A stretch of DNA of 24,000 bases from Candidatus Saccharimonadales bacterium (GTDB lineage Bacteria; Patescibacteriota; Saccharimonadia; Saccharimonadales; JAGQMS01): contig JBGSMB010000033.1 of the NCBI GenBank assembly GCA_041740375.1, positions 16,739-40,738 of the forward strand. Reading direction: 5' to 3'. Below the pieces are notes generated by a model that was given only the letters and a program-made list of their open reading frames with translations, did no database searches and had not been told where the DNA came from. The number at the start of each line of letters is the position of its first letter. The stretch's first letter is position 1. Of this stretch, positions 78-18,239 are shown piece after piece. The position numbers and the translations under genes were made by a program.

Positions 78-2249
78 ATGAAGGCTACTCAACCCGATTC
101 AATTACTAAATTCATCAAGTCCAACGAACTTACCTTCGAAATACCTGTCTATCAAAGAAACTACGATTGGGATATTGAAAACTGTGAAAAGTTATTTGAA
201 GATGTACTTGAAGGTATTAGAAGTAAGCGAAAACACTACTTTGGAAACATAGTTTATTACGAAGCAGGTCGTGATCCTTTTTCAGGGTTTACTCGTTACA
301 TATTGATAGACGGACAACAACGTATAACTTCGGTCATGCTGCTACTCGCTGCCGTGCGTGATGAAGAAGAGGATGAGTCCAATAAAGCCAGACTTACTTC
401 TACATACCTAACCAATGAAAAAGCTGATGAGAACTTCCGAGTAAAACTTAAACAAGTAGAAACAGATAGAAATGTTTATGAAGCAATTGTTGAAGGACGC
501 ATGGAGGCCATTAATAAGAGTTCAACCATCTACAGAAACTATAATAAGTTCCGCAATCTTGTTAAATCCGCCAAGACTGGGCACGACTACACTTCAACCG
601 ATTTGCTTGAAGGCATCAATTATTTAGATATTATTGCAATTGATCTTGAATCTGAAAAAGAAGGTTCTGAATCACCACAAGTGATCTTTGAAAGTATCAA
701 TGCAACGGGTAAGGCACTTTCTGCAGCGGATCTCTTACGTAACTTCCTTCTTCTAGAGGTAGGGACGGATAAGCAGGAAGAGTATTACAAGAACTATTGG
801 CTAGTAATTGAAAAGAACGTTGGCAACGATAACATTAGTGATTTTATACGCCGATATCTTACTCTCGAAACTAATGAAGATATAAAACGAGACACTGAAT
901 ATAAAGAGTTCAAGAATAGCTACAAAGAGTATTTTACAGATGCCGAAGATGCCATAAAAAAACTAACGCATTATTCTAAATATTATCATTGGATAAAGCG
1001 ACCAGAAGCAGTCAGTAAAGAACACCCGAAAACTAGCCTTCTTTTGCAGGATCTGGACGACTTAAGAATGATACCTGCAACCCCAACAATTATGTGGCTA
1101 CTCGAAAAGGCAGATACTGCGCAAATGAGCTTTGATGAAGTAAATGACGTGTTTGATGTCATTGCATCATGGTCATTTAGGGCTCGTATCACCAACATTA
1201 TTAATACGGGTGAAATTGGTAATATCCTTACTACGAAGATTCTTGAATTTCTTAAGAATAAAGATAACGAAGACTCCTATGCAGACTATCTCTGGTTTGA
1301 ATTATCAAATTATCGTCTTCATGATATCTATCCAAGCGATGATATGTTTAGAGATGCATTCACTAGGTACGACTTCTATAAAAACTATAGAAGATACGTA
1401 CAGCAGAAATTATCGTCCTCAATATCACGAGATCAGACCGAAATTGTACTAGAGTCTATCGAGCATATAATGCCCCAGTCCATTAAACCAGATAAATGGC
1501 CGGGTATTTCAGCAGGCGAACATGTTGAATGGGTAAACACAATTGGCAACCTTACCCCACTCAATATGCCAGATAACCTAGATAATTCTAATCATTCATT
1601 TGCAGATAAAGTCGCAAATATTAAGAATTCAGATTGGCAGATAACTCGAGAAGTCGATACTGAAAATGGATGGAATATTGAATCGATACAAAAGAGAGGA
1701 AATAATCTTGCCGAAAAAGCAGTGTCTGTATGGAGATCCCCTAAGCAGCGCACACGAGATATTGAATTAGCTCGACGAGTAGGCAATATGGAGCGTGCTA
1801 AAAAGTATATAGAACTTATTAACGAACTAGAACTTCCATTTATTCAGATTGACGAAGAGCACTCAAACAATACCTACGTACGACTTACCACTGATTACAT
1901 GACCTCTTTAATCCCATCTATTGATAGAGACAAAGGACCTTGGAGAAGTGGTAGTGCATACTACTATGAATTCCAGAGTGAATCGACGAGTAACCGTGTA
2001 CGCATAAGCTTATCGTTTGGCGCAGATGCAGTTTCTGAAGAACAAACTGCTGGGCAAAAAGCAGTGATGGATTTTGTGAATAAGTATCCTCCTAAAAAGG
2101 ATTGGCTTTATTTTCGTCCTATAGGTTGGACTCTTAATCATGAAGATGGTGAAGAGACATTGAGGGATGAAGTATACAGAGTTTTATCAGAAGTAATACC
2201 TCGATTCGAGCAAGAACTAGACGATGCCGTTAAAGGGCATGTAGGCTAG
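78..2249 (+). CDS. GmrSD-like type IV (modification-dependent) restriction endonuclease family protein: DUF262 (ParB-like NTPase) + DUF1524 (His-Me finger nuclease) + ~150-aa C-terminal extension
   Basis: 723-aa ORF with AGGAGA at 63-68 upstream of ATG 78. N-terminal DUF262 motifs are FEIPVYQRNYDW and LIDGQQRITS. The DUF1524-type His-Me finger region is IEHIMPQS ... IGNLTPLN ... NSNHSF. It starts 5 nt after the hsdS-like stop. Confidence 0.85.
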   Translation: MKATQPDSITKFIKSNELTFEIPVYQRNYDWDIENCEKLFEDVLEGIRSKRKHYFGNIVYYEAGRDPFSGFTRYILIDGQQRITSVMLLLAAVRDEEEDESNKARLTSTYLTNEKADENFRVKLKQVETDRNVYEAIVEGRMEAINKSSTIYRNYNKFRNLVKSAKTGHDYTSTDLLEGINYLDIIAIDLESEKEGSESPQVIFESINATGKALSAADLLRNFLLLEVGTDKQEEYYKNYWLVIEKNVGNDNISDFIRRYLTLETNEDIKRDTEYKEFKNSYKEYFTDAEDAIKKLTHYSKYYHWIKRPEAVSKEHPKTSLLLQDLDDLRMIPATPTIMWLLEKADTAQMSFDEVNDVFDVIASWSFRARITNIINTGEIGNILTTKILEFLKNKDNEDSYADYLWFELSNYRLHDIYPSDDMFRDAFTRYDFYKNYRRYVQQKLSSSISRDQTEIVLESIEHIMPQSIKPDKWPGISAGEHVEWVNTIGNLTPLNMPDNLDNSNHSFADKVANIKNSDWQITREVDTENGWNIESIQKRGNNLAEKAVSVWRSPKQRTRDIELARRVGNMERAKKYIELINELELPFIQIDEEHSNNTYVRLTTDYMTSLIPSIDRDKGPWRSGSAYYYEFQSESTSNRVRISLSFGADAVSEEQTAGQKAVMDFVNKYPPKKDWLYFRPIGWTLNHEDGEETLRDEVYRVLSEVIPRFEQELDDAVKGHVG

Positions 2250-2258
2250 GATAAGCTC

Positions 2259-3737
2259 ATGATGACTTTATCTAAGTCTGACTACACAACCTATCTTAAA
2301 CACCCTGCATGGCTATGGATAAAGAAGCACGCTAAAACAATTCTCCCACCGATTGATCCTGCTACTCAGGCAATATTCGATACAGGTCATGAGTTTGAGC
2401 AATACGCCGAAGCCCTATTTCCCGGTGGAGTAACACTTGGATTTAATGACTACGACGAGTACTTATCTTTACCAGAAAGAACAACTCAAGCCCTCGACGA
2501 AGGTATGCATACTATCTTTCAAGGTAGATTTGAGCATGAACAGCTAACCTTTATCTGTGATGTTATTCAGGTGGTTGAAGGTAAAGAAGTGGATCTTATT
2601 GAGATTAAGTCCAGTACAAGCGCAAAACCAGAACACATTGTAGATTTGGCATTTCAATTAGTAGTGCTAGAAAAATGTGGATTCACTGTACGACAAATAG
2701 CGGTTATACACGTAAATAATCAATATGTACGCAACGGGACTATAGATCCAAAACAAATTACTGCTAGGACAGATGTTACGGAAAGCGTAAAAGCTATACG
2801 AGACTTTACTTTGCTAAAAATTGATGAAGCTTTGCAAGTCATAGCACTCACAGAATGTCCCGATGTATCACCGCTCAACGCAGTTTCAAAGTCGTTTGGA
2901 GAATGGCTAAATATCTACAAACATATTAAGAGCCCTAAGCAGGGCAGTATTTATGATCTATGCCAAATGGACGCTAAATCATTACAGAATCTTCTAGACA
3001 ACAACATCGCATTTATAAAAGATATCCCTGAAGATTTTGTACTTAAACCGAAACAAAGATTACAGGTTGAAGCGTTTCGTATGGGCGTACCAACAATTCA
3101 TAAAGATAAAATTAGTGAATTCCTAGAAACATTCACGTACCCACTTTACTATTTTGATTACGAGACGCTAGGAAGCCTCGTGCCGTATTTCGATGGTCTT
3201 AAACCATATCAACAGCTACCGTTTCAGTACTCACTGCATGTTTTAGAAAGTGCCGATTCAGAAATAAAACACTACGAGTATCTACATAAAGACAATTCTA
3301 ATCCTGCTAAACCATTAACGGAGGCATTGATGTCTCAGATAGGTGAAAGTGGTACTGTTATTACTTGGAATATGGGCTTTGAGAAGAGTTGTAATGCACT
3401 AATTGGGTCATTGCTACCTGAATATGCTGAGTTTTATGAAAAACTGAATGACCGAATCATGGACCTTATGACGCCTTTTTCTAAGAATTGGTATGTAGAT
3501 TCTGCATTTAAAGGAAGCGCTTCGATAAAATATGTATTACCAGCACTTATCCCCGAACTATCTCATAAGAATTTAGATATATCGGAAGGCGGTACTGCTC
3601 AACGATTATGGATGGAGGCTGTATTGGATGGTAAACGTGATGATGAAAAAGAAAAGATCCTAAGCGACTTAATAGAGTATTGTAAGCTAGATACCTTAGC
3701 GATGGTCGAGATCTACAGAAAATTGGTTTCGCTATGA
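2259..3737 (+). CDS. DUF2779 domain protein: N-terminal Cas4/RecB-like PD-(D/E)xK nuclease plus C-terminal RNase H-fold (DEDD-like) exonuclease
   Basis: 492-aa ORF, 9 nt after the upstream stop. DUF2779 hallmarks recalled from memory: LSKSDY..(L)WIKKH at the N-terminus, GHEFEQYAE, DLIEIKSST (D..ExK), YYFDYETL...KPYQQLPFQYSLH, GSASIKYVLPAL, YCKLDTLAMVEIY. Confidence 0.8.
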   Translation: MMTLSKSDYTTYLKHPAWLWIKKHAKTILPPIDPATQAIFDTGHEFEQYAEALFPGGVTLGFNDYDEYLSLPERTTQALDEGMHTIFQGRFEHEQLTFICDVIQVVEGKEVDLIEIKSSTSAKPEHIVDLAFQLVVLEKCGFTVRQIAVIHVNNQYVRNGTIDPKQITARTDVTESVKAIRDFTLLKIDEALQVIALTECPDVSPLNAVSKSFGEWLNIYKHIKSPKQGSIYDLCQMDAKSLQNLLDNNIAFIKDIPEDFVLKPKQRLQVEAFRMGVPTIHKDKISEFLETFTYPLYYFDYETLGSLVPYFDGLKPYQQLPFQYSLHVLESADSEIKHYEYLHKDNSNPAKPLTEALMSQIGESGTVITWNMGFEKSCNALIGSLLPEYAEFYEKLNDRIMDLMTPFSKNWYVDSAFKGSASIKYVLPALIPELSHKNLDISEGGTAQRLWMEAVLDGKRDDEKEKILSDLIEYCKLDTLAMVEIYRKLVSL

Positions 3738-4156
3738 AACCAGACATCTATCTTGATATCGACGGTGTGCTATTGGCGAACGACTTGAATCCCGCTAACC
3801 ATGCAAACGACTTCTTAAGATTTGTACTTAATAAGTATCCTGATACTACCTACTGGCTAACAACACATTGTCAGGGTGATGCTGACATACCTATTCAACA
3901 TATAGGTCATCTTTTCGAACCTGATGTCGTAGAACTCATGAAAAGGATTAAACCTACTACTTGGGACTTGGCGAAAACAAGAGCGATAGACTTCACAAAA
4001 CCGTTTTTATGGTTTGATGATGATATGTTCTATGAAGAAAAACAAGAACTAATGAAACACAATGTACTGGATAACTGGATAGAGGTTGATTTGTCTAAAG
4101 ATCCCGATCAACTTTCAAAGTTTCTGGCTAGCTTTCCAATACCTTCAAATATTTAA
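3734..4156 (+). CDS. Small HAD-superfamily phosphatase-like protein (140 aa)
   Basis: ATGA start/stop overlap with the DUF2779 gene (3734-3737). HAD motif I is YLDIDGVLL (DxDG). A Thr-containing motif II candidate is WLTTHC. The acidic motif IV is LWFDDDM. Substrate cannot be inferred. Confidence 0.7.
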   Translation: MKPDIYLDIDGVLLANDLNPANHANDFLRFVLNKYPDTTYWLTTHCQGDADIPIQHIGHLFEPDVVELMKRIKPTTWDLAKTRAIDFTKPFLWFDDDMFYEEKQELMKHNVLDNWIEVDLSKDPDQLSKFLASFPIPSNI

Positions 4157-4172
4157 CAGAAGCAAATATAAG

Positions 4173-4313
4173 CTATGAGTTAGCTCCAGTACTACCACTT
4201 TCGTCCTTGTTTACTCGTTTATCAATTTCAGCTAGTAGGGTAAAGAATTCTACTAGTGTTGCTATATCTTCTTCTGAGAGTTTCCTTTTTTCTGTAGGTT
4301 CTTCAATACTCAA
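4173..4313 (-). CDS. Hypothetical 46-aa protein translationally coupled to the T4SS coupling ATPase gene (TTG start)
   Basis: Not in the ORF track (too short). The minus strand reads GAAGGAG-TTACGTC-TTG, with the TTG overlapping the upstream TGA stop (TTGA). Peptide: MSIEEPTEKRKLSEEDIATLVEFFTLLAEIDKRVNKDESGSTGANS, ending at TAG 4173-4175. The SD plus stop/start overlap supports it. Short length and a non-ATG start limit confidence. Confidence 0.35.
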   Translation of the reverse strand: MSIEEPTEKRKLSEEDIATLVEFFTLLAEIDKRVNKDESGSTGANS

Positions 4314-6910
4314 GACGTAACTCCTTCTATCCGATGACTTTTTCGATTATTTTCATAAGTAACTCCGACTTTTTTATCGGGTGCTAATTTAGTCACGTCT
4401 TTGTCGCCTTTATCATTATCAACTACCACTGATCCGTATTTTTCTTGTGATAAGATTTTAATTCTACGCGCCATCTCTAGGTTAGATTCACTTGATAATA
4501 TTACAGTTCTACCAGAGATTGGCTCTTGGGCATTAATTGCAGATATGCGGGCGTAGAAATTATACGAAGGCAGATTAGATAACTCGTTCTCTTCAATGAA
4601 TGGTTTAAATAGTGGGAGTATCAGCCTCTCGTCGGCCGGGCTACCTGATCTAAAGGCTATAACCGTACCTACATTTGCTAGGATAATATCTACAAGTCTT
4701 TGCTCTACTTGTTGCTGGGTAGATTGTTCAGCCATTATAAGAAATAGCTTATACTTCCTCGCTTCAGATAACATCTGTACAAAACTCATAGTCGCGAAGT
4801 TCTGAAATTCATCTACGTATAAGTAGTAAGAACTGCGTTTGCTGTGTGTTTGCCTAGCACGTCTGAGTGAGGCTAGTTGCATCTTGGCTAGTATTGTTAC
4901 TCCGAACAACATAGAAGTATCTTCTCCGAGTAAACCTTTAGAGAAGTTACAGATTATGATCTTTTTTTCGTCCATGGCAGTATCAAAATTAACGGTAGAT
5001 TTATTTTGCTCTAGTATCCGTTTAGCACTTGCTGAAAACAGGAATCGACCAATCTTAGCAGTAATACCGGCTGCCATTTTAACTCTCTGATAATCACCAG
5101 CTTTACCTATCTCATTCTTCCAGAAGTTTTTAAGATCTTCATTCTCAAGATTATTAACTACACCTTTTCGGTACTTGGCATCATTTAGTAGTCTGAATAT
5201 TGTAAATAGATTTGCTTCTTCCATGGTAAGCGCAGTTTGAATGGTATTTCGGAGTACGTATTCAATGCGATGTCCACCGCTATCATCTTCAGAGAATATT
5301 TTACGTAACACCGATACCGTAGATTCAGTTACGATATCCTTCTCACGAAGTAACTCATCACCAGATATATGTTCAGGTAGCTCTAGTAGATTTATACCAA
5401 TTGGATGAGATAAGTCATCAGGATTAATGTAGATAACGTCCTTCATGCGTTCTTCCGGTATATAGCCTAGTAGTTCTTCAGCAAGATCTCCGTGTGGATC
5501 AATTACAGCCAGTCCCTTACCGGATTGTATATCCTGTACAATTTGGTATTTGAGCATGGTTGTTTTGCCGTTACCCGTACCACCAATAACATACATATGA
5601 CGTTGTCTTTCAGCCTCTGTTAGTCCAATCGGTGTTATTTGACCTTGATGATGGTTTTCACCAATAAGTACATCTAATTGAGTACCATTCTTGAGAGAGA
5701 TAGTTGCTGGTAACGTTTTTGCTAAGGATTTTACAACGTTTTCTATGTTGGCATGTTCGGAGTGGGGGAAGTGGTACATTCCTGCAAGTTCCTCACTAGA
5801 TAAATATATCGGGCGGAATACATCTCCCATAAGTCGTTTTCTAAACAGCCATACCTGAATTTTCTTTTGTACTTTAATGCGGTATCTTTTCGTTACCAGT
5901 CTTTGCAATTTCTCGTTTGCGTATAGGCTTACGGCACTCGCAATAGAATTAGCTCGCTCAGACGATTCTTTAGCGGAGTCTACATAAATGCAGGCACGGA
6001 TACTTGATGCAAAGTGCGGTTGATCAAGTTTCTTACTAATCTCATCTACCATCTCAAGTTCAAAGAAACTCAAAGAGCGTTCAGGTTTAACATGTTTACT
6101 AACTTCACTTTTCCTTTGAAGCTCTACATCTTTACGAGTGACATTGGGTTGTGTTTCGGGATGAAATATCATCGATACTGCATCCGCTAGTCCAAATAAC
6201 ACACTGCTAAATATTCTTCCTATAAACCCTAGTCCAACCGGCAACCTATGCCTATATTGATTGACCATCTCCTGATTAGCCAGTACCCTACGTTTTAAAC
6301 GCTTTGCCTCTTTTAATCTTCTTGGAGATACGCACACCTGATACATAACAAGTTCGTCCGTGCCTAGTTTTGTCATGGCACCCGTAATGTAGCTCATTGG
6401 ATCGTGGGTATCGTCCCTGTCGTATTTCATAAGAGGATACATGTAGTGGCTATTCTGTCTAAATCTAAGTATTCTAAAATTAGCTGCATTATAAGGTACT
6501 ATAGGATCATCAATAATTTTTGTCGCTACATCGGGTACGTGTGATGAAATGAGCCTACGAAACATATCAGCACCAGTTTCAGGTACTCTTGTAATAAACC
6601 TAATACCTTCTTTGCGGGTACTTACTATTTCAAGACTATAGAGAGAATTAATCCCCATTAATCTGTGTGTCAAACTGCGACTCAGCCCAAGGCCATGTAG
6701 TGCCCTCATAAGAGTTATATTTGCTTGTGGGTGCTTATTTCGAAATGCTGGAGGAATAAGCTCAATAACAACGTATGATTGTCTAAGATTATATATAAAA
6801 GCAGTTATTCTACGAATAATTACCATGATTAAACTACAAAGTAGAAATACCGCTAGAAAAAGGGCGATGTTTTTGGCTACAGATATAAAATCAGAAAGTT
6901 GGAACTGCAT
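4310..6910 (-). CDS. Type IV secretion coupling-protein-like ATPase (VirD4/TraG/TraD family) with a long N-terminal non-ATPase region
   Basis: 866-aa ORF. N-terminal TM helix IALFLAVFLLCSLIMVIIRRI. Walker A VIGGTGNGKTTML sits near residue 443. Walker B-type motif YYLYVDEFQNF. AAAGGAA precedes ATG 6910. It overlaps the M23 gene by 20 nt. Confidence 0.85.
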   Translation of the reverse strand: MQFQLSDFISVAKNIALFLAVFLLCSLIMVIIRRITAFIYNLRQSYVVIELIPPAFRNKHPQANITLMRALHGLGLSRSLTHRLMGINSLYSLEIVSTRKEGIRFITRVPETGADMFRRLISSHVPDVATKIIDDPIVPYNAANFRILRFRQNSHYMYPLMKYDRDDTHDPMSYITGAMTKLGTDELVMYQVCVSPRRLKEAKRLKRRVLANQEMVNQYRHRLPVGLGFIGRIFSSVLFGLADAVSMIFHPETQPNVTRKDVELQRKSEVSKHVKPERSLSFFELEMVDEISKKLDQPHFASSIRACIYVDSAKESSERANSIASAVSLYANEKLQRLVTKRYRIKVQKKIQVWLFRKRLMGDVFRPIYLSSEELAGMYHFPHSEHANIENVVKSLAKTLPATISLKNGTQLDVLIGENHHQGQITPIGLTEAERQRHMYVIGGTGNGKTTMLKYQIVQDIQSGKGLAVIDPHGDLAEELLGYIPEERMKDVIYINPDDLSHPIGINLLELPEHISGDELLREKDIVTESTVSVLRKIFSEDDSGGHRIEYVLRNTIQTALTMEEANLFTIFRLLNDAKYRKGVVNNLENEDLKNFWKNEIGKAGDYQRVKMAAGITAKIGRFLFSASAKRILEQNKSTVNFDTAMDEKKIIICNFSKGLLGEDTSMLFGVTILAKMQLASLRRARQTHSKRSSYYLYVDEFQNFATMSFVQMLSEARKYKLFLIMAEQSTQQQVEQRLVDIILANVGTVIAFRSGSPADERLILPLFKPFIEENELSNLPSYNFYARISAINAQEPISGRTVILSSESNLEMARRIKILSQEKYGSVVVDNDKGDKDVTKLAPDKKVGVTYENNRKSHRIEGVTS

Positions 6911-7547
6911 ATGTTCCTTTCGGTTCCCCAGTTAAAAAGATTCTTGGATTTACTGTGACACCATATACATAGACCATAAAATGTAGGTGTGGCCCGGTAG
7001 ATTCACCTGTGTTTCCCATATTGCCGATTAGATCACCTGGCTTTACTTCTGTACCAATAGCAAACTCCACCACGCTATCAAGGTGACAATATTGTGAGGA
7101 TATATTATTACCATGATCTAATCTGACTGATTTGCCACAGTCTCCGGCTGGGTCATTATCGACAATGACAATCTTACCTATAGAAAAAGGTGTTACTGGC
7201 TCACCACTTAACCCCCGCTCATTTGCTATATCAATACCACTATGAGGGCCAAGAAATCTATTTTTACGCCACAATTCCCAGGTACCAAATTCATCTGATA
7301 CATATCCGCGAGTAGGCCAAGTGCTAGATATTGGTAACTCCGCAACTTTTACGCCGTCGGGATTAAATATCTCGACCAATTTAGTTACAGGATTAACAGC
7401 AGCCAAAGCGTCGCCGACTAACTGTATGCCTGAACTAGCAACCACTACAACTGCAAAGGCAGGAAGTAGTATTAAAACTGCAAGCGTCGCTAGAACTATT
7501 TTTAGTTCAGTTTTGGATGATTTCAGTATCCAAAGGAAAATCCACAT
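6891..7547 (-). CDS. M23/LytM-family metallopeptidase (membrane-anchored peptidoglycan hydrolase of the T4SS operon)
   Basis: 218-aa ORF. N-terminal TM anchor IVLATLAVLILLPAFAVVVVA. Zinc-ligand motifs HSGIDIA (HxxxD) and GNTGESTGPHLHF (HxH). It starts 1 nt after the VirB4 stop. Confidence 0.9.
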   Translation of the reverse strand: MWIFLWILKSSKTELKIVLATLAVLILLPAFAVVVVASSGIQLVGDALAAVNPVTKLVEIFNPDGVKVAELPISSTWPTRGYVSDEFGTWELWRKNRFLGPHSGIDIANERGLSGEPVTPFSIGKIVIVDNDPAGDCGKSVRLDHGNNISSQYCHLDSVVEFAIGTEVKPGDLIGNMGNTGESTGPHLHFMVYVYGVTVNPRIFLTGEPKGTYAVPTF

Positions 7548-7548
7548 T

Positions 7549-9312
7549 TTAGGTGTATATTTCCGTCGGATTAGTTGTTATGAGTGGATGTTCTTTTTCT
7601 GAGGCAACTACTTTTACTGCAACGTGGTTCTTATCGGCAATAATCAATGCATCACCCTTGTCGCAGGTAAGTAGGAAATTGCTCTCATATTCACTTAGCC
7701 CAAACTGTGAAACAACATTCTTGATAGTTGTTGTGTCTTGCCGCATCAGAATACGCAGAGCCGATTGTGATGCAATTGCACGCCCATAGTCGCTTCGCAG
7801 AAAGTCATTAGCCTGCTGAGAGATTATTGACACGCCAAGATAGTACTTACGTGCTCTACGCACTAAACCTGATATAAAGCGTGCTGATTCTTCATGTTCT
7901 AGTAATAACCAGCCTTCATCAATAACTAGTAGCCGTTTCTTTGGTTCGTTCTTTACTTGGTTTTGTACATAGTTAGAAATAATAAGCATCATAATTTGCC
8001 GTAGTGTTTCCGGCATATCTTTGATATCAAAAACTACGAGACGGTTATCTAGACTAATATTACTTTGTGAATTAAAGACAGTCGCCAGTGAACCAGATAT
8101 GTATTTCTCAAGTCTCTCACATAGTTTAAGTTGTCCAAGGCCTTTAAGTTCTGCGTACAAATCACTAAGTATCGGAGGCTTATTATTCTTAGCCTTTTTA
8201 TAGATACCAAGCAGTGCTTTATCTACTGCTGCTTTTTCTGCAGAATTAAGTCCTTCTGCCATGAGACTTACTACCTCCATAAGATCTTGTACATGTTCAC
8301 TTAAATCTTTCTTTGAGGTGGATTTGGTTTGGATATCAAAAGGATTTAATTTCTGTCTACTATTCGCTGATAGTTTTACGTAGCTACCATCAACCGAATC
8401 ACTTAGAAGTTTGTACTCACGCTCGGGATCAATCACTATGACTGATGTACCCTGCATTAACTGCCGTAGTATCTCAACCTTAGTTGCATAGCTTTTACCC
8501 GAACCACTCTGTGCAAAGACGATTGAGTTGGCATTATGTAGACTAAACCTATCAAGAATTACTAAAGAGTTATTAGACTTATTTACTCCGTAGAGAATAC
8601 CTGATTCCTGTACTAGCTCACTACTCATAAAGGGGAATGTGAGACTGGCCGAACTACTGTCTAGGTTTCGTTTCTGACCCAGTACATCTTCTGCCCTCGG
8701 TAATATCGACTGAATACCTTCGTTTTGTTGATAGCGGGCTACTTTTGTATAGAAAAGCCGTGCACCCATAGCGTTTTCAAGAAGTTTTGTTGTCTTATCT
8801 AACTCATCAAGCGAACTTGCCGATACGCAGACGTAGATACTAATTTGAAACAGCATTTCTTGACCACGCTGAATCTTATCTCTAAGTTCCATAGCACTTT
8901 CTAGCGGATCAGTAACTTCAGGCCCGACAATTTTACCTGCACGAACCATTGCTCGCTTGGTGCTTTCTAGTTCAGTTATTTTGCGGTGTAGTTTAGGCAA
9001 AGCCTGCGTCGCTTCAACTTGTGAGATGTGATAGCTAATATCTACGTTGTGGTTGAAAGTAATGAGTGAGTTTAGCCAGCCTGAACTAGCAATAAATGGA
9101 TAGCCCGATATTAACATAGTGCGCATATATACACCGTCAATCACTAGATAATCAGGTGTTTCTTCTAACCCTGCATAGCTAATGATATCTACTGCGTCTT
9201 GTTGACCATATTCAAAGCTAAAATCTTTTGGTTTATTGTCTCGTGTCTTCTTCCAGTTTTTAACTTTCTTAGTAAGAACCTTTTTGATATCCGGAGAAGC
9301 TAGCGTGCTCAT
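7549..9312 (-). CDS. virB4: VirB4/TrbE-family T4SS ATPase (C-terminal 587-aa part of a split VirB4)
   Basis: Walker A FAQSGSGKSYATK. Walker B RLLVIDEGW. The upstream VirB4 N-domain signature is DGVYMRTMLISGYPFIASSGWLNSLI..VDISYHI. GAAGGAG lies 7 nt before the ATG, and there is an ATGA overlap with the preceding ORF. Confidence 0.9.
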   Translation of the reverse strand: MSTLASPDIKKVLTKKVKNWKKTRDNKPKDFSFEYGQQDAVDIISYAGLEETPDYLVIDGVYMRTMLISGYPFIASSGWLNSLITFNHNVDISYHISQVEATQALPKLHRKITELESTKRAMVRAGKIVGPEVTDPLESAMELRDKIQRGQEMLFQISIYVCVSASSLDELDKTTKLLENAMGARLFYTKVARYQQNEGIQSILPRAEDVLGQKRNLDSSSASLTFPFMSSELVQESGILYGVNKSNNSLVILDRFSLHNANSIVFAQSGSGKSYATKVEILRQLMQGTSVIVIDPEREYKLLSDSVDGSYVKLSANSRQKLNPFDIQTKSTSKKDLSEHVQDLMEVVSLMAEGLNSAEKAAVDKALLGIYKKAKNNKPPILSDLYAELKGLGQLKLCERLEKYISGSLATVFNSQSNISLDNRLVVFDIKDMPETLRQIMMLIISNYVQNQVKNEPKKRLLVIDEGWLLLEHEESARFISGLVRRARKYYLGVSIISQQANDFLRSDYGRAIASQSALRILMRQDTTTIKNVVSQFGLSEYESNFLLTCDKGDALIIADKNHVAVKVVASEKEHPLITTNPTEIYT

Positions 9313-9920
9313 AAATATGCTCCTTCTAGTAAGTTAATGGTCTGATTCGTTAATGGCTGAAGTTTGGCCTGCGTCGGGCTGTAGAAGCTATAGAATAGGT
9401 CTAGTGATTCAAGACTATTGAGTGGTCGTACTTGCATACCCATCCGTCCTAAACCTTTAGTAACCATATCGGTACTAAGCTTTAGAGCGGATTTAATAAC
9501 GTCAAAATCTTTATCTTTGTTCTCGGTTGGAATAACAACGTAGAAAGTTCTAGATAGAATTTTATTACTCTTAACAAGATCTTGTACGAAATGAATATAG
9601 TTTTCGGCCTGCGCTTTGTATATCTTTTGTTTTTCATTAGCAGTCTTTGAACGAAAAGATTCAAGGTATCGATCCATATCCATTTCGCGAACTCGTACAA
9701 GAATCTGAAAACTAATGTTCAGCGAGTTTAGAAAACTCTGATATGTATCGATTAGAGCATCTTGTTCCTCTTCACTCATAAGTTCAAAGTTAATACTCGA
9801 GACTTGCAAAATTCGTGCATACCGATACTTTGGCATTATAATTATGCCATCTCGTACACCTTCAATTGCAATCTGACCTCGTGAGCTTGTGCGATTATTT
9901 GACTTCTTTAATAGAGACAC
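9309..9920 (-). CDS. Soluble ~203-aa protein resembling the extreme N-terminal part of VirB4/TrbE-type ATPases (split VirB4, N-fragment)
   Basis: The ORF track gives 9309-9944 (ATG, no SD). An in-frame GTG at 9920 is preceded by AAGGAGGA plus 5 nt, so I prefer it. There is no TM segment. The segments IAIEGVRDGIIIMPKYRYARILQVSSINFELMSEEEQDALIDTYQSFLNSL and LNSLESLDLFYSFYSP resemble, from memory, the first ~200 residues of full-length VirB4 proteins. Confidence 0.6.
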   Translation of the reverse strand: MSLLKKSNNRTSSRGQIAIEGVRDGIIIMPKYRYARILQVSSINFELMSEEEQDALIDTYQSFLNSLNISFQILVRVREMDMDRYLESFRSKTANEKQKIYKAQAENYIHFVQDLVKSNKILSRTFYVVIPTENKDKDFDVIKSALKLSTDMVTKGLGRMGMQVRPLNSLESLDLFYSFYSPTQAKLQPLTNQTINLLEGAYL

Positions 9921-10395
9921 GTAATCCTCCTTTTTTTGTTGCATGAAATACTAAGTTGGCTTTTGGCTCCAAGATTATCTCTTCAAGTCGCTTCAAACTT
10001 CCAAAATCCATTTCGTGATGAATAAACTTCTTTTTGCTAGTTTCTTCGCTAGCCTGAACTGTATCTGCTTTTACTTCATATTTTTTACGTAGCTGCAGTG
10101 AGTTTTTATTGTATGTGTAGAAAGTTGGTCTTAGGTTGTACCTGGAACGGATAATTATCCAATCAACTACAAGTCTGCCTTTAATCCTAATTGCTAGGGA
10201 CGCGCATACGAGAGCAAATAAAGTCCAAATAACTATCTTGTAGGGTGAATAGCCGAGAAAAGGCGGCAAAAAAACATACATAGCACCACCTAGAAAAACA
10301 GGGGCTACTAAAAGTAGCATCTGCTTAAAAGATATGTTGCCAGCGATCTTATCTTCTACAGTAGTAATCTGAGCCGGTACGACGGTTTGTTTCAT
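9895..10395 (-). CDS. PrgI-family / VirB3-like small inner-membrane T4SS protein
   Basis: 166-aa ORF. AAGGAG lies 5 nt before the ATG, with an ATGA overlap to the upstream gene. The N-terminal segment TTVEDKIAGNISFKQMLLL is followed by two TM helices (VAPVFLGGAMYVFLPPFL, IVIWTLFALVCASLAI). That is the typical PrgI topology, and the gene sits directly upstream of VirB4. Confidence 0.7.
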   Translation of the reverse strand: MKQTVVPAQITTVEDKIAGNISFKQMLLLVAPVFLGGAMYVFLPPFLGYSPYKIVIWTLFALVCASLAIRIKGRLVVDWIIIRSRYNLRPTFYTYNKNSLQLRKKYEVKADTVQASEETSKKKFIHHEMDFGSLKRLEEIILEPKANLVFHATKKGGLRVSIKEVK

Positions 10396-11681
10396 TTATA
10401 CTCCTTTAACTTTTGACTTGATGATCTAGTAATATGAACTGTTTGAGGAGGTGCTACCCGACTGGTGCGCATTTTATCTGTAGTGTAGTGAACGCCGTTC
10501 ATGAATTGGCCACCAAGTTTGCGTAGGGCCCTTGGCCCCGCACTAACGTAACTAAGTTGCATCAGCACTCCCTGTGTCTTAAGAAGGGTAACCAGAGTTG
10601 CGACACCGATTATCGTTGCCATTACAGGATCGTATGGCTGTGGTTGACCATCTTTTTTAAGACCAACAAATAAAGTCGCTGCAAGCATTAAGATGACAAC
10701 ATGTATAAAAAGCACAAAGATGTTTGTGATGTAGACCTTTATAGCTGTGGCACTAAAATCCCTAAATCCAGGTACGCTAGACAAGAGTATTGCGAGAGGA
10801 GAAAGTATTGCTCCTACGTACAAAGTCACAATACGCATGACGTAATACACTAGCAACATTGTGGCAAGAACCAGAAATACCACCATAATTAGAAGTGCTA
10901 CCAGACCTTGACCTCCGGCACCACTTACTACGCTAGTCAACGCATCCCATACCGAGAGTGAGTCGAATACGGATTCAATAGCTTTAATCATGGCGTTACT
11001 GAGGCTGATGATGAAGTCAATAACAAATATCGACATATTCATACCAAGAAAAGTTAACCCAAGTTTTGGCAAAAGGTGCTTAAATTCAATCTCTTCAAAT
11101 CCTAATGATGCAGCACTCATGATATGAAAACCAAGTAGTGCTACAACTAATACGAATAGAGCGTTAGCTATTCCTAGTATCGCTAGCCACAACTTAAACA
11201 CAGCAGGATTATCCGCCATAAGAGGAGTACTTTGAGTAAAGTAATCGAGTGCTGCGACAAAAGGTTTTCCAGCTGTCTCGATGATGTTTTTGAAAAGTCC
11301 GATGATAGCTTTTAGGAGAACTTCTGTTAAACCTCCGTCACCATCTCCCGTGTCTATAGGGGCTAGTGACGGAATGTTTGAAATTGTATATTCACCACCA
11401 CCTTGATAGGCATTACTTAGAATCGCCGTTATTGTTCCTGCAGCGATAACAATTACTAAACCGACAATAGCATTTTTTAAAACCTTTTTAGCGTGTTCTA
11501 GTTTTTCAGGATTTCCACGGCTTCCCATATATGAGATACCTGCAGTAATAAGGAAGAATGTCGAGACTACCCCAGCCAGACCAATAAGACTTAACATGAT
11601 AGGCTGCAGGTAATTTTGTATATCAGTATTGGTTGAGGCTAGGTTCGTTGCAGGGACATGCAAGAACGCTAGCAAATTCAT
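10392..11681 (-). CDS. VirB6/TrbL-like polytopic membrane protein with an N-terminal pilin-like module
   Basis: 429-aa ORF. GGGAG plus 4 nt precedes the ATG, and it starts immediately after the pilin TAA. Residues ~20-95 are about 40% identical by eye to the upstream pilin. The remainder has at least 6 hydrophobic helices, typical of VirB6-like channel proteins. Confidence 0.7.
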   Translation of the reverse strand: MNLLAFLHVPATNLASTNTDIQNYLQPIMLSLIGLAGVVSTFFLITAGISYMGSRGNPEKLEHAKKVLKNAIVGLVIVIAAGTITAILSNAYQGGGEYTISNIPSLAPIDTGDGDGGLTEVLLKAIIGLFKNIIETAGKPFVAALDYFTQSTPLMADNPAVFKLWLAILGIANALFVLVVALLGFHIMSAASLGFEEIEFKHLLPKLGLTFLGMNMSIFVIDFIISLSNAMIKAIESVFDSLSVWDALTSVVSGAGGQGLVALLIMVVFLVLATMLLVYYVMRIVTLYVGAILSPLAILLSSVPGFRDFSATAIKVYITNIFVLFIHVVILMLAATLFVGLKKDGQPQPYDPVMATIIGVATLVTLLKTQGVLMQLSYVSAGPRALRKLGGQFMNGVHYTTDKMRTSRVAPPQTVHITRSSSQKLKEYK

Positions 11682-12026
11682 TTAACTCCCAAACGCTTTC
11701 CCAGCAACTTCTGAAATGATGTTGCTAAGTACAAAGGCACCAATAGTAATTGCTAGACCCATTCCTGAGTAGAGCAATGTTCTTTTAGATTTATCTAAGT
11801 TCTCGGGGTTGCCGGAACTTGTTATGTATCCAAACCCACCGACAACAAAAAAGCCGGTCGCTATGAGACCGGCTAATCCTGCTAGAATTTGGATGACGCT
11901 TCGGAGAAAGTTTTCTACTTGTCCGACGCCTCCCGCACTCTGTGCAAAAGCTGTGTCGGTGAGAATGAGTGGCAATCCAATCATCACCATGATGGTGAAC
12001 AGTTGGAGCATTTTGTTTTTACTCAT
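11682..12026 (-). CDS. VirB2/TrbC-like T4SS pilin (Gram-positive/CPR 'T4SS pilin' type), 114 aa
   Basis: I prefer the start at ATG 12026, which is preceded by AAGGAGG (12031-12037) plus 4 nt (TAAG). The track start at 12056 lacks an SD. Signal peptide MSKNKMLQLFTIMVMIGLPLILTDTAFAQ. Two hydrophobic helices flank a GNPENLDKSKR loop, which is the pilin hairpin topology. Confidence 0.75.
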   Translation of the reverse strand: MSKNKMLQLFTIMVMIGLPLILTDTAFAQSAGGVGQVENFLRSVIQILAGLAGLIATGFFVVGGFGYITSSGNPENLDKSKRTLLYSGMGLAITIGAFVLSNIISEVAGKAFGS

Positions 12027-12047
12027 TCTTACCTCCTTGTAAGCAAA

Positions 12048-12076
12048 ACATAACACATGTGTTTGACATAATGCAA
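12048..12076 (-). promoter_or_regulatory. Candidate sigma70-type promoter of the T4SS operon with an embedded 12-bp palindrome
   Basis: The minus strand reads TTGCAT (12071-12076), 17 nt, TTATGT (12048-12053). The perfect palindrome AACACATGTGTT (12052-12063) lies in the spacer and overlaps the -10. Sequence-only prediction. Confidence 0.35.
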
Positions 12077-12160
12077 ATATATTATTTAATACATAAGCAG
12101 TATTCCTGTATTTTATATTGGTTCAAATGAACCTAATTTACTTACATCGCAATTATTCTG

Positions 12161-15100
12161 CTAAGAATTTTCTAATGAGTAACCACTTGTAACTTTTTCA
12201 CGCTTAGTCAGGTATATTGGTTTGGTAGTATAGAATGCTACTTTTGTGCTGACCGCCAAGTAAAGTGCGCCACTTACTAACATAAATATAAAGGCTGGTT
12301 CGTTTAAGACTATGACGTGCCATGACGCTAGACCTGTCCATATAAGTGCTGGAATGAAGTTAAAGAAGACCTGAAGTACTCTAAATGTTGTATATCTGTA
12401 GTCTCTTCCTTTGACTGCTCCGGTTGGTTGCCACGACATAGCCTTGCGTGTAATTGCATCATAAATAGCAAACAAATGTGCCCAACCATAAACACTACGT
12501 ACTGCCCAAGCTTCTATGCCGTATGTATTCTTATGCCATAATGGGTAAATTATCCAAGAGAATATAAATGCTGGAAGAATTAAGAGTGTATATTCTAATT
12601 TCACAACCTCTGGGATTACTAACAATAAATATAGCGGTATGATTGGTGCAAAGAAAGAAATAATAGCTGTATTTATATAATATAGAAATCCAGAAATATA
12701 AGAGAGCCTAGTTCTTAATTTAAGTTTAGTACTCCAGAATTTTTCAGAAGTAAGTAGGCTCATAGAACCCATACACCACCTATATTGTTGCTTAAAGAAC
12801 GCAGGCATTGAATCTGGACACAATCCCTTCGCTAAGACTACCGGCACGTATTGAAGACCCCAACCATGCATTCTTAAATTGAAGCCGGTGTGAACGTCTT
12901 CAGAGTGTTCAATTAAGGCTGTACCGCCGGTATCATTTAAAGCCGCTCTACGGTATAGCGCGTTACTACCAACACAAATCGCCGCACCATGATGTTGTCT
13001 AGACACTTGCGAGAATCTATAAAATAATTCTTGAACAGCTCCAGCTCCACGCTCAAGCCAGTTTTGACCATTGTGAACATCAAAATACTGAGGAGATTGT
13101 ATAATGCCTAATTTCTCATCTTTTTCCATATAGGGCAGTAGTTCATTCAAAAAGTCAAAACGAGGCTTAAAGTCGGCATCAAAAATAACTATGAATTCTC
13201 CATTTGAAACACCATATCCATGTCTTAAGTTTCCTGCTTTTTTATGTTGACCTCGATTAGGCCTTGATTCATATTTGAATCCGTATTTATCAGATAACTT
13301 TTTCACTTCATCTCTTGCACTATCATCTAGACAATAGGCTATGATTTTGCCGCGGTAATTTTTCATAACGTCATGAACGCCGTCCCATGTGTTGGCCAAT
13401 ACTCCAATATCTTCACCGGCCGTAGGTAAGAATATGTCAATGCTAGGGTATTTTTTCGGCCTCCAAGCTAATACAAGTGCTTTATGTGCACTTATATCAA
13501 AATTCTTAGTACCTATATTCACAACGAAAGAAACAATGAAATAGACTACCGTTAGTGCTAGGAATCCAAACAATATCCAAATTGCTGGGTTGGCTGCAAT
13601 AAAGCGGTACATGCTTATAGATACAAAACTAAAACTTATTACAGAAAACAACATAAGCAATCTGTAGTTTCGGCTGCTATAAATCCATTTGTCATCATCA
13701 TCGGGCGATCCTGGAAGTAATTCTTTACTAGGAGCACGGAATTCGAATAGTCGGTAGTGTTCATTTATAATTTTAATTCTCAATGCTGTACGGTCGTATG
13801 TTCTGAATGTAAAGTTCAGAACAGGTTGAGCGAATGGCACAAATAGCATAGTAATAGCTGTTACGCTGCCCCAGAAAATCATGATAGGAGACGTGCGACC
13901 TGTAGATAATGATGAAATAATTCCCAACAAAGCAGTGCCACCAATTAGGAGATGTGGCCAAAAAAGCTTTAAAGAATCTTCGTTGAAAACCTTGTCATCA
14001 CCTTTTGGCGTCACCTTATATGATAATTTCTTACGAGCAGATACTCCTATGAATGCTATGAAGAAGATAGGCCAAGATGCTGCACTTATAATTTTGCCAG
14101 CAAACATGAATCCTTTCTCCTCTTTAGGTCGTACGTGGAATCTCTGCATCCATAATGCCATAAGACCAACTACAGCAATAACCGGAAGATAGATTGAAAC
14201 AAATGGTATGAATTCAACCTTTGCTGTATTGATACCGAACATAAAATAGAGTACTAGTCCAATAGAACCTATAGTCATCGCAAGACCTGAAAAATAATGC
14301 TGTTGAAGCATAAAGTAATATGTTTTCTGCCTTAGGCTCATAGTTCTAAATAGCTTGAAACTAAAGTGACGAAGAACATGCATGCATCCGTAAGCCCAAC
14401 GCATTTGTTGCGCAAAATAAGCCTGCCAGGTTGTTGGACCTTCTCCGATTGCTAAGGCTTCACTTACATAGGTACTCTTCCAGCCATTTGCATGTAGTTT
14501 CATACCCGTGAGGAGATCTTCAGTGATATGTGCGCTATAGTGATCTACATCTTCTAGTGCCTTAACCCTTATGACGTGGTTAGCGCCGATCAACATTGTC
14601 ATATCCATACCCTGAAAACCGCGAAGTATAGGACCATAGAAACTATATGTCTGTTCAGCTGCACCACGTGCAATTAGTGAGTCGGCAGTATTTCCGTATA
14701 TCTGAGGAGTGCCTACAAATGCAATTTTAGGATCTTTAAAATAACCTAAAGTTTTAGTAAGGAAGTCTTTACTAGGAATGAAGTCTGTATCCATTTGTGC
14801 AACAAAATCATACTGATGACCATGGGCGTCATACCAAGAGTTATGGTTTCCGCCTTTAGTCTTTTTAGCAAACTTACCGTCATCAGTATTATATGTTGCT
14901 TCTTCAGCACGACTAAAATGTTTTACTCCATATTTTTTACAAATAAGCCTAACTTCTGGATCGTTGCCTTCGTCTAATAACCACGTATCGTGTTTATAAT
15001 TAGCCCTAACTAAAGCTGGAAGACATTTATGTAGCAAATCTACTGATTCCGATGCAGGAACAAAGGTGGTAATAAACGCTACTTTTAATCCTTTTTCTGG

Positions 15101-15340
15101 TTTTGAAGCGGTGTGTTCTTTAATGTTTGAAAGTACAGACCATGAGAAAATCGCCATAACAATTGGATGCCATATTACATAAGACACAAACAAGAAAAGT
15201 AAGATATCAAAAATATTAAACCAGTCATCAAAATTATTTGGAATGTGAGACGGGTTAAACCACCACACAGCAAAAATAGACACTAGTATCAGTGCCGCAG
15301 TACTAAATGCGGTGTGCAATCGCTTGCCATATTTATTCAC
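12161..15340 (-). CDS. Tandem double processive family-2 glycosyltransferase (two BcsA/CesA-like synthase modules in one 1059-aa membrane protein)
   Basis: GTG start at 15340. Module A motifs: LLDEGND, KGGN, DTDF, TPQIY, TEDLLTG, QQMRW (nt 14396-14410), YKVTPKG. Module B motifs: CLDDSARD, KAGN, DADF, SPQYF, SEDVHTG, QQYRW (nt 12776-12790). Each module is flanked by its own set of TM helices. Equivalent motifs are offset by ~540 residues. Confidence 0.9.
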   Translation of the reverse strand: MNKYGKRLHTAFSTAALILVSIFAVWWFNPSHIPNNFDDWFNIFDILLFLFVSYVIWHPIVMAIFSWSVLSNIKEHTASKPEKGLKVAFITTFVPASESVDLLHKCLPALVRANYKHDTWLLDEGNDPEVRLICKKYGVKHFSRAEEATYNTDDGKFAKKTKGGNHNSWYDAHGHQYDFVAQMDTDFIPSKDFLTKTLGYFKDPKIAFVGTPQIYGNTADSLIARGAAEQTYSFYGPILRGFQGMDMTMLIGANHVIRVKALEDVDHYSAHITEDLLTGMKLHANGWKSTYVSEALAIGEGPTTWQAYFAQQMRWAYGCMHVLRHFSFKLFRTMSLRQKTYYFMLQQHYFSGLAMTIGSIGLVLYFMFGINTAKVEFIPFVSIYLPVIAVVGLMALWMQRFHVRPKEEKGFMFAGKIISAASWPIFFIAFIGVSARKKLSYKVTPKGDDKVFNEDSLKLFWPHLLIGGTALLGIISSLSTGRTSPIMIFWGSVTAITMLFVPFAQPVLNFTFRTYDRTALRIKIINEHYRLFEFRAPSKELLPGSPDDDDKWIYSSRNYRLLMLFSVISFSFVSISMYRFIAANPAIWILFGFLALTVVYFIVSFVVNIGTKNFDISAHKALVLAWRPKKYPSIDIFLPTAGEDIGVLANTWDGVHDVMKNYRGKIIAYCLDDSARDEVKKLSDKYGFKYESRPNRGQHKKAGNLRHGYGVSNGEFIVIFDADFKPRFDFLNELLPYMEKDEKLGIIQSPQYFDVHNGQNWLERGAGAVQELFYRFSQVSRQHHGAAICVGSNALYRRAALNDTGGTALIEHSEDVHTGFNLRMHGWGLQYVPVVLAKGLCPDSMPAFFKQQYRWCMGSMSLLTSEKFWSTKLKLRTRLSYISGFLYYINTAIISFFAPIIPLYLLLVIPEVVKLEYTLLILPAFIFSWIIYPLWHKNTYGIEAWAVRSVYGWAHLFAIYDAITRKAMSWQPTGAVKGRDYRYTTFRVLQVFFNFIPALIWTGLASWHVIVLNEPAFIFMLVSGALYLAVSTKVAFYTTKPIYLTKREKVTSGYSLENS

Positions 15341-15347
15341 TAGTATT

Positions 15348-15376
15348 ATTTTAACACAAAATTAACTATTAGACAA
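15348..15376 (-). promoter_or_regulatory. Candidate promoter of the double-GT2 gene (extended -10, leaderless geometry)
   Basis: The minus strand reads TTGTCT (15371-15376), 17 nt including TGt (15354-15356), then TAAAAT (15348-15353). Seven nt follow, then GTG at 15340. There is no SD in the gap. Confidence 0.45.
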
Positions 15377-15816: not shown

Positions 15817-15826
15817 TTAACAAGTT

Positions 15827-17715: not shown

Positions 17716-17723
17716 TTTTTTCA

Positions 17724-18212: not shown

Positions 18213-18239
18213 CTTTTACTGAATAAACTAAGTTAGTTC

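Follow-up and report, generated by a model that had tools for sequence, protein, structure and literature searches.

In a 24-kb stretch of DNA from a Candidatus Saccharimonadales bacterium (hereafter the window, meaning the whole stretch analysed), we examined an operon at positions 4173–12076 of the minus strand. We conclude that it probably encodes a resident, non-conjugative type IV secretion system (T4SS) of this member of the Saccharibacteria (Patescibacteria), most likely a host-contact conduit for macromolecules. Eight co-oriented minus-strand open reading frames (ORFs) lie between 4173 and 12056, in the order VirB2-like pilin, pilin-VirB6 fusion, PrgI/VirB3-like protein, TrsD-like protein, VirB4, M23 hydrolase, a second ATPase of 866 residues and an ORF of 46 residues. 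An earlier note, made from the sequence alone, had described such a chain of eight ORFs, and we confirmed it. The same note had proposed a T4SS of the Gram-positive or candidate-phyla-radiation type from an epibiotic, small-genome lineage, resident in the chromosome and with a job other than self-transfer. The affiliation agrees with a VirB4 that passes the CD1110 model and with relatives from Saccharimonadales, and the residency and the other job are supported, as far as sequence can tell, by synteny, purifying selection and two published studies (PMC12102498 and PMC10633639).

Gene content of the operon

Domains were assigned by searching the products of the window ORFs against Pfam and NCBIfam profiles. 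For comparison with related loci, an alignment of VirB4 was scanned against one genome per species, and a relative was found in 258 species genomes. The best 80 of these, together with three metagenome contigs, formed a comparison set of 83 loci (individual loci are cited below by handles such as L001). On the three contigs VirB4 was 94% identical to that of the window, and the record titles of the best 80 loci were almost all Candidatus Saccharibacteria, Saccharimonadales or Patescibacteria, and by this identity the window's VirB4 may belong to the Patescibacteria VirB4 clade.

The fifth gene (7549–9312) encodes a VirB4 ATPase of 587 residues that corresponds to the C-terminal two thirds of a canonical VirB4. 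It scored 350 bits against NF045971 (conju_CD1110), for which the curated cut-off is 325, with the alignment starting at model position 187, and it matched Pfam P-loop_TraG (3.7e-28). VirB4 was found in all 83 loci, was 74–94% identical in the closest relatives and gave a ratio of nonsynonymous to synonymous substitution (dN/dS) of 0.015. The fourth gene (9309–9920) encodes a TrsD-like, separately encoded N-terminal part of VirB4, of 203 residues from GTG 9920 or 211 residues from ATG 9944. In its 211-residue form this protein aligned with positions 11–172 of the CD1110 VirB4 model (1.4e-15) and with TrsD (5.9e-11) in NCBIfam, and the product at this position in relatives carries the TraC-like domain PF26593. 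Judged by these profile matches, the fourth and fifth genes are one VirB4 in two pieces.

A VirB4 in two ORFs, within a minimal set of parts, might also be what is left of a decaying mobile element whose VirB4 was split by a frameshift. The database relatives of VirB4, however, number in the thousands at about 80% identity and about 580 residues, and the top 120 are all 570–597 residues long. TrsD was present in 81 of the 83 loci, each time as a separate ORF overlapping the start of VirB4. Because VirB4 length is nearly uniform and the upstream ORF is separate in 81 of 83 loci, the split is the normal gene structure and not a frameshift; in the pGO1 subclass, too, TrsD is known as a gene of its own (PMC12102498). 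Both pieces showed dN/dS of 0.015–0.02 and Shine-Dalgarno motifs precede the starts, so that the idea of a remnant is refuted by conservation and we give it practically no credence.

The first gene (11682–12026) encodes a VirB2/TrbC-like T4SS pilin of 114 residues (Pfam TrbC 1.1e-10, T4SS_pilin 2.6e-9) with a signal peptide ending AFA/Q, two hydrophobic helices and a YITSSGNPE loop; it was found in 68 of the 83 loci, with dN/dS of 0.17. The second (10392–11681) joins a pilin-like N-terminal domain to a polytopic VirB6/TrbL membrane protein in a fusion of 429 residues, with Pfam matches to T4SS_pilin at residues 20–86 (4e-9) and to TrbL_4 (5.5e-6) and TrbL (3e-3) at residues 119–382. This fusion was kept at approximately full length in 72 of 83 loci (dN/dS 0.04). 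The third (9895–10395) encodes a small PrgI/VirB3-like membrane protein of 166 residues (Pfam PrgI 1.3e-7), which was found in 76 of 83 loci with dN/dS of 0.07. The names that the earlier note had given to the pilin, the pilin-VirB6 fusion, PrgI/VirB3, the N-terminal VirB4 fragment, VirB4 and the M23 enzyme all match Pfam or NCBIfam.

Taken together, a VirB4 above the NF045971 cut-off stands beside Pfam matches to PrgI and TrbL/VirB6, the combination by which a T4SS is recognised. The gene set of Patescibacteria T4SSs was also found, since TrsD, PrgI/VirB3, VirB6 and a VirB2-like pilin lie near virB4 with no relaxase nearby. With regard to the MPF_FATA class, NF045971 was passed, PrgI was above its Pfam cut-off, TrsD and PrgI were below their NCBIfam cut-offs and CHAP is present in relatives; this assignment was made with Pfam and NCBIfam models.

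The genes are chained with little or no spacer. The pilin stop abuts the next start (TAA and ATG, at 11682/11681), ATGA overlaps lie at 10392–10395 and 9309–9312, a single nucleotide at 7548 separates VirB4 from the M23 gene, the latter overlaps the second ATPase by 20 nucleotides (6891–6910), and a TTGA overlap at 4310–4313 joins the ATPase stop to the start of the 46-residue ORF. The third and fourth genes overlap by 26 nucleotides from GTG 9920 and by 50 from ATG 9944, the start of the longest ORF. All junctions listed in the earlier note were found again, the 26-nucleotide overlap with the GTG 9920 start. This GTG, which is preceded by the Shine-Dalgarno motif AAGGAGG, is most likely where the fourth gene begins. 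For the pilin, the start is most likely ATG 12026 and not GTG 12056 of the mechanical ORF list, because AAGGAGG lies 6 nucleotides upstream of the former. Shine-Dalgarno-like motifs precede nearly all starts, that of the 46-residue ORF included.

The region upstream of the pilin (12032–12076, minus strand) holds TTGCAT at 12076–12071, a stretch of 18 nucleotides, TATGTT at 12052–12047 and then the Shine-Dalgarno motif AAGGAGG at 12038–12032. TTGCAT is weakly promoter-like and was seen by eye, and coordinate 12076 is merely its start. Its nucleotides are conserved in L001 and, over part of the region, in L004, and the promoter scan of the window did not call the TTGCAT/TATGTT pair; we infer a promoter function for it from the letters only. 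Apart from a hairpin in the pilin gene, the promoter and terminator scans of the window returned matches at chance level only, and an Rfam search found no family match anywhere in the window.

Probable residency in the chromosome

The core order from pilin to second ATPase was kept in essentially all of the 83 loci wherever the contig sufficed. Such a recurrence of the seven-gene order is far beyond chance, so the arrangement in the window is real. Measured against the relative with the 94%-identical VirB4, dN/dS was 0.015–0.17 for the six upstream genes and synonymous divergence (dS) was saturated except in the pilin gene. The flanks, by contrast, were unrelated between species, with 274 flank proteins falling into 213 clusters. 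Among 133 cluster representatives scanned with Pfam, the families found were those of defence and housekeeping, with two tyrosine integrases; no relaxase was present among the 25 families listed of the 160 matched. LigA, HSP20 and peptidases adjoin the locus in relatives, and HSP20 also neighbours the T4SS cluster of S. epibionticum. The earlier note had named a synteny comparison as its own check, and this one gave a core order conserved across species between unrelated flanks. Because a conserved core under purifying selection sits within unrelated flanks, we regard the locus as an old chromosomal resident beside variable defence islands and not as an integrative conjugative element (ICE).

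Its parts are nevertheless homologous to conjugation machinery and include a coupling-protein-like ATPase, so the operon could be the transfer module of an ICE or plasmid with relaxase, oriT and integrase lying outside the 24 kb. The two tyrosine integrases and the differing flanks would suit that explanation, and the scan of the source for mobility genes was confined to the window. Against it, no fewer than 258 species genomes from a single lineage carry the core, with VirB4 at 75–94% identity and saturated synonymous divergence, a pattern that fits vertical descent. No relaxase, integrase, replication or partition protein was found among the window ORFs of at least 100 residues, as the earlier note had held for the 24 kb. 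Neither tRNA genes nor att-like repeats were found in the window, where repeats are at chance level only. It thus offers neither an integrase nor the direct repeats or tRNA target expected of an ICE, and housekeeping genes flank the relatives. Moreover, a relaxase lies near only 15 of 2,474 Patescibacteria virB4 genes (PMC12102498). We consider a mobile element very improbable, and keep to the resident, non-conjugative system.

Two observations on the distribution of these loci were made alongside. Several metagenome-assembled genomes carry two or three T4SS loci (L007/L029/L031; L018/L068; L033/L081; L049/L067), which may be paralogous systems or mixtures of strains. In L042, an insertion of about 4.5 kb with four or five genes (12299–16800) separates the hydrolase from the second ATPase, the sole break in core synteny seen.

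A second ATPase with a probable composite architecture

The seventh gene (4310–6910) encodes an ATPase of 866 residues with a transmembrane helix, a DUF8128 domain at about residues 45–385 and a TrwB-like nucleotide-binding domain at about residues 410–830. The earlier note had called it VirD4/TraD-like. This holds for the ATPase domain, which is coupling-protein-like, but not for the N-terminal domain of about 400 residues, whose fold resembles the N-terminal domain of VirB4. Matches to Pfam TrwB_AAD_bind (3.4e-7), TraG-D_C (1.2e-4) and T4SS-DNA_transf (3e-4) were at or just above the thresholds and of partial coverage, and members of the family give the same Pfam set together with PF26449 (DUF8128). 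In NCBIfam, the TraD and CD1115 VirD4-like models matched far below their cut-offs, the longest match being that to the CD1115 model over residues 432–753; VirB4 profiles matched with E of 1.8e-4 or worse. A sequence search of the PDB gave TrwB entries as the only meaningful matches (E 0.006).

We then relied on structure prediction. An AlphaFold2 model made with 55 homologues had a mean predicted local distance difference test (pLDDT) score of 74 and comprised a long N-terminal helix, a confidently predicted alpha/beta domain (45–385) and a P-loop domain, in which Walker A (GGTGNGKT, 443–450) and Walker B (VDEFQN, 699–704) are separated by a predicted all-alpha insertion (helices 518–647). 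In Foldseek searches against the PDB, the C-terminal half resembled TrwB, with template modelling (TM) scores on the target of 0.61–0.66, and the best full-length matches were TrwK/VirB4 of R388 (E 1e-11). When the N-terminal 410 residues were modelled alone (pLDDT 82, predicted TM score 0.76), the top 14 PDB matches were all TrwK/VirB4 chains with E from 5e-7 to 6e-4, and the next match was unrelated (E 0.02). The TM scores of this domain to TrwK/VirB4 were modest (0.36–0.39), and the resemblance is therefore one of fold. An hhalign comparison of residues 291–475 with residues 143–299 of the operon's own VirB4 gave a marginal match (E 1.5e-4, 51% probability). DUF8128 as a TrsD-like sequence was considered and rejected, since hhalign found nothing; its link to VirB4 consists of the fold and the marginal profile match.

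On the basis of these models, we describe the protein as a membrane-anchored ATPase that combines a VirB4-like N-terminal domain with a coupling-protein-like ATPase domain, and refrain from classing it as a true VirD4. With the T4SS coupling proteins (TrwB of R388, VirD4, TraD) it shares the TrwB-like C-terminal fold, the Walker motifs, the all-alpha insertion and the N-terminal anchor. Those proteins lack the 340-residue DUF8128 domain that the window ATPase carries between anchor and ATPase, and the N-terminal domain of VirB4 (TrwK of R388) is the sole significant structural match of that domain. DUF8128 is rare (395 clusters at 50% identity among 1.84 billion representatives) and is always N-terminal, in proteins of about 830–990 residues. 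The combination of DUF8128 and a TrwB-like domain in such an operon appears to be new.

In 72 of 75 informative loci this gene follows immediately after VirB4 and the hydrolase, and it is missing in L068, L038 and L074; eight of the 11 loci without the ATPase end less than 700 nucleotides from VirB4. Against the same relative as above, dN was 0.25 and dS was beyond estimation. Where a T4SS has a coupling protein but no relaxase, it typically translocates effectors, as do Cag, Dot/Icm and the VirB/D4 effector systems. The second ATPase might accordingly recognise proteins and export them through the pilus or channel to subvert the host bacterium, and its conserved coupling-protein-like domain suits this idea, as does the speculation in the literature on effector delivery in Saccharibacteria (PMC11665869, PMC10633639). 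However, no candidate effector or chaperone gene is conserved beside the operon, where the flanks are unrelated, and the C-terminal tail of the ATPase is poorly conserved and predicted to be disordered. We hold effector translocation to be a tentative possibility within the broader reading of a host-contact conduit.

The wall-hydrolase slot

Between VirB4 and the second ATPase, in the slot of a VirB1 analogue, the sixth gene (6891–7547) encodes a membrane-anchored M23 peptidoglycan metallopeptidase of 218 residues (Pfam Peptidase_M23 5.3e-23). An M23 enzyme fills this slot in about 20 loci, including the clade of the window, and a CHAP-domain protein of similar size was found there in all ten of the other loci sampled (for example L010 11716–12249 and L064 11737–12348). 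On domain assignment, M23 and CHAP at this slot are a case of non-orthologous replacement. That two unrelated wall-cutting enzymes occupy the same position argues that the job of the slot is the local opening of peptidoglycan, the VirB1 role. Occupancy of the slot by either enzyme appears to be a new observation.

The pilin module and its hairpin

A block of about 620 bp (approximately 11470–12095), which takes in the sequence ahead of the pilin gene, that gene itself and the pilin-like beginning of the following one, is mosaic with respect to the rest of the operon. It is 90–97% identical in nucleotides to L001 (7190–7800), compared with 70–80% for the remaining operon, and dS was 0.20 in the pilin gene versus 1.4–4.3 in other operon genes. 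The high identity of the block and the low pilin dS, at synonymous sites that are otherwise unconstrained in the pilin gene, suggest that the pilin module was recently exchanged between lineages by recombination.

Signs of recent exchange are expected of a surface-exposed part at the host contact, and they bear on whether the system is an adhesive or contact pilus only, with ATPases that serve pilus biogenesis and nothing transported. What is unusual beside Gram-positive T4SSs is the addition of pilin genes, and in S. epibionticum these are essential (PMC12102498, PMC10633639), which would suit a pilus of this kind, yet adhesion and motility are already provided by type IV pili in these bacteria (PMC11665869). 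The second ATPase also speaks against it, being kept in nearly every informative locus. In VirB and F systems, pilus biogenesis needs no coupling protein. Because the second ATPase is under purifying selection, a role in transport is likelier than adhesion alone, and we think a pilus without transport unlikely.

The terminator scan called a hairpin inside the pilin ORF (11842–11874, minus strand) in a segment that encodes L-A-G-L-I-A-T-G-F-F-V. Its sequence is AGCCGGTC-TCATAGC-GACCGGCT, then TTTTTGTTGT. The GC-rich 8-bp hairpin at 11852–11874, followed by a T-run, resembles an intrinsic terminator. Across 63 distinct pilin genes, the entropy of synonymous codons was 0.8–1.1 bits at the stem codons alone, compared with about 1.9 bits at the other four-fold degenerate codons, and single codons dominated in the stem (GCC in 48 of 63, GGT in 52 of 62, GCG in 51 and ACC in 50). 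About 45 of 60 sequences had this hairpin as their minimum-energy fold, and the stem was paired in 89% of cells versus 18–46% when the partner was slid. Changes in the stem were mostly G.U-compatible, and three were compensatory; that G.U pairs are tolerated suggests a structure formed in RNA, on the sense strand. Each locus has a single copy of the motif, found in the pilin gene and nowhere else, so that a dispersed DNA signal, either an uptake sequence or an operator family, was rejected. It matched no Rfam family. The hairpin may plausibly act at the start of the operon as a translation-sensitive attenuator, and the synonymous conservation of the hairpin appears to be new.

The small ORF, neighbours and flanking islands

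The operon ends in an acidic ORF of 46 residues (4173–4313, minus strand), whose TTG start codon shares nucleotides with the stop of the ATPase gene and has GAAGGAG 7 nucleotides upstream. It matched no Pfam or NCBIfam family. A homologue of 36 residues sharing LSEEDI..L..F..L.EI was found in L001–L003 only; none was found in L084, where the ATPase is closer (82% identical), or in any other of the 83 loci. The earlier note had counted this ORF as part of the core operon. Its distribution within a small subclade led us to reject it as an eighth core gene, and it may be a real small protein of that narrow subclade.

The other window ORFs encode a GmrSD-type restriction enzyme, a DUF2779/Cas4-like nuclease, a small HAD-like protein, a double GT2 glycan synthase, a PLD-family protein, an XRE-type regulator, AbiH and thiol-redox envelope proteins, in agreement with the neighbours named in the earlier note (restriction and defence, glycan synthase, envelope redox). 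The suggestion that the double glycan synthase (12161–15340), described there as co-oriented with the operon, belongs to the same locus did not hold. None of the 83 loci has a homologue of it in the neighbourhood of the T4SS, and we rejected it as a member of the locus; the closest relatives have a gene of 164 residues in its slot, and the slot between the PLD gene and the pilin is variable. Upstream of the glycan synthase lies an intergenic region of 480 bp (15341–15826) with about 30% G+C and many promoter-like matches. Because the glycan synthase is absent from that position in all relatives, the region may mark the edge of an insertion or have a regulatory role.

Further on, a helix-turn-helix (HTH) protein of XRE type with 65 residues (15827–16024, plus strand) and a PLD-family (HKD) protein of 162 residues (15999–16487, minus strand) form a convergent pair. 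In related loci the PLD gene was present in 38 of 83 and the HTH gene in 21 of 83, located ahead of the pilin gene or immediately behind that of the second ATPase. Similarity of the PLD protein to the PLD domains of NucT and MkoC is weak, and it has no signal peptide. NucT is functionally linked to transformation in Helicobacter pylori, and we liken it to this small nuclease-like gene that is often linked to the locus. A regulator, a nuclease or a defence function are candidate roles.

Variable defence islands border the operon. In the window they lie at 78–4156 and 16620–18212, with GmrSD, AbiH and a TnsA-like endonuclease. Defence genes were also found in L001 at 15076–21764 (SMC/AAA_21, T5orf172, ResIII) and in L084 at 4054–14059 (PycTM, an Eco57I-type restriction-modification gene and SNF2). 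The gene for the DUF2779/Cas4-like nuclease is the sole conserved neighbour in the subclade of the window. A cluster for thiol-redox proteins of the envelope (18289–23646) encodes DM13, a membrane-anchored thioredoxin, a DsbD-thioredoxin fusion with Thioredoxin_10, a glutaredoxin and a cytochrome-b5-like protein; it also holds a cysteine-rich protein of 372 residues without a family.

Discussion

The system and its lack of a relaxase have already been published, and the operon is an ordinary member, not a new kind of system. Quiñonero-Coronel et al. (2025, Microb Genom, PMC12102498) collected 2,474 Patescibacteria virB4 genes, which form a monophyletic clade related to MPF_FATA, with TrsD, PrgI, VirB6 and VirB2-like pilins frequent near virB4. 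In the same survey coupling-protein genes lie near virB4 in 148 of 5,713 cases, whereas the corresponding arrangement is nearly universal in the environmental clade sampled here. By transposon sequencing, Wang et al. (2023, Cell, PMC10633639) found that the T4SS cluster SEML1_0006-0019 is essential for the epibiotic growth of S. epibionticum. This cluster resembles Gram-positive conjugative systems, contains essential pilin genes and has no recognisable coupling or relaxase proteins (PMC10633639). Competence dependent on ComEC is dispensable in this organism, unlike the T4SS cluster (PMC10633639; PMC12857230). A 2025 review of T4SSs labels the Patescibacteria systems exciting newcomers (PMC12857230), and a 2026 preprint on a cultivated Patescibacterium describes tubular structures, proposed to be T4SS pili, and reports that host RNA is acquired (bioRxiv 10.64898/2026.06.21.733656).

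The T4SS of S. epibionticum ML1 has in common with that of the window one or more VirB2-like pilins, a VirB6-like protein, PrgI/VirB3, TrsD, VirB4 and a hydrolase right after VirB4, and both are chromosomal and without a relaxase. They differ in that the ML1 cluster has six pilin genes on the opposite strand, where the window has one pilin and the 429-residue pilin-VirB6 fusion, and its parts are larger: two VirB6-like giants (998 and 1088 residues), a PrgI of 300 residues and hydrolases of 643 and 1113 residues, compared with the PrgI of 166 and M23 enzyme of 218 residues in the window.

Among MPF_FATA systems (CTn2 with CD1110-CD1115, pGO1 Trs, pCF10 Prg/Pcf, pIP501 Tra), a VirB4 of the CD1110 family, PrgI and, in relatives of the window, a hydrolase of CHAP type are common ground, and pGO1 Trs has TrsD as a separate N-terminal VirB4-like gene, just as the window does. 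Unlike them, the window system comes without relaxase, oriT protein, adhesin or VirB8/PrgL-like protein; it is found across the lineage in the chromosome, whereas theirs are on mobile elements, and it has VirB2-type pilins, which Gram-positive systems lack (PMC12102498). Judged from genes alone, it may also be likened to H. pylori ComB and the archaeal Ced system, in which a VirB4-type ATPase and membrane parts work in uptake without a relaxase. Weak profile matches to CedB and CedD were seen, with all Ced scores far below their cut-offs, and ComB has no coupling protein and no pilus.

By analogy with these systems, the apparatus might work as follows. The VirB2-like pilin would be exported by Sec and polymerised on a platform of the pilin-VirB6 fusion and PrgI/VirB3, with the two-piece VirB4 (TrsD and VirB4) powering assembly and transport. 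The membrane-anchored M23 peptidase would open the epibiont's own wall for the apparatus, and the second membrane-anchored ATPase, beside VirB4 at the channel entrance, would feed or pull the substrate. The result would be a pilus-tipped conduit that moves macromolecules where host and bacterium touch. As to what it moves, our first choice is that nucleic acid or cytoplasm is taken up from the host, which we hold to be possible though short of even, followed by export of effectors, which is possible as well, then a purely adhesive pilus, which is unlikely, and conjugation, which is at most very improbable. A more specific conjecture, which we regard as doubtful, is that the 866-residue ATPase represents a distinct third lineage of T4SS ATPases, intermediate between VirB4 and VirD4, that it marks a form of the Saccharibacteria T4SS pulling host nucleic acid in as food, and that expression is gated by the pilin-gene hairpin.

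Several points weigh against a host-contact conduit as we propose it. Known T4SSs for DNA uptake, ComB among them, manage with no coupling protein, so that the presence of the coupling-protein-like ATPase speaks for import no more than for export. A search of the window for a VirB8-like component found none, as the earlier note had said of VirB8/PrgL-like proteins. No MOB relaxase, the mark of a conjugative element, was found within the 24 kb, the scope being the window and the flanks of relatives, so a relaxase may lie elsewhere in the source genome. The ML1 cluster has no ATPase besides VirB4, whereas the window has a second one in the operon. Two coupling-protein-like genes do exist outside that cluster, the distant SEML1_0293 being non-essential and SEML1_0142 essential (Wang et al., supplementary tables, PMC10633639), but neither allows the importance of the window ATPase to be transferred from S. 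epibionticum. Finally, in a 2024 perspective, which puts forward the delivery of effectors or the acquisition of nucleotides, the role of these systems is called "completely unknown" (PMC11665869).

Patescibacteria account for a large part of bacterial diversity, and few machines are known on which their epibiotic life depends; the Saccharibacteria T4SS is one of them. In work on the oral model strain, the lack of a recognisable coupling protein in the cluster was used as an argument against nucleic-acid transport. A compact environmental form with a second ATPase inside the operon would be a better starting point for deciding between the transport of nucleic acid and of protein, and through the hairpin in the pilin gene the regulation of the operon becomes open to test.

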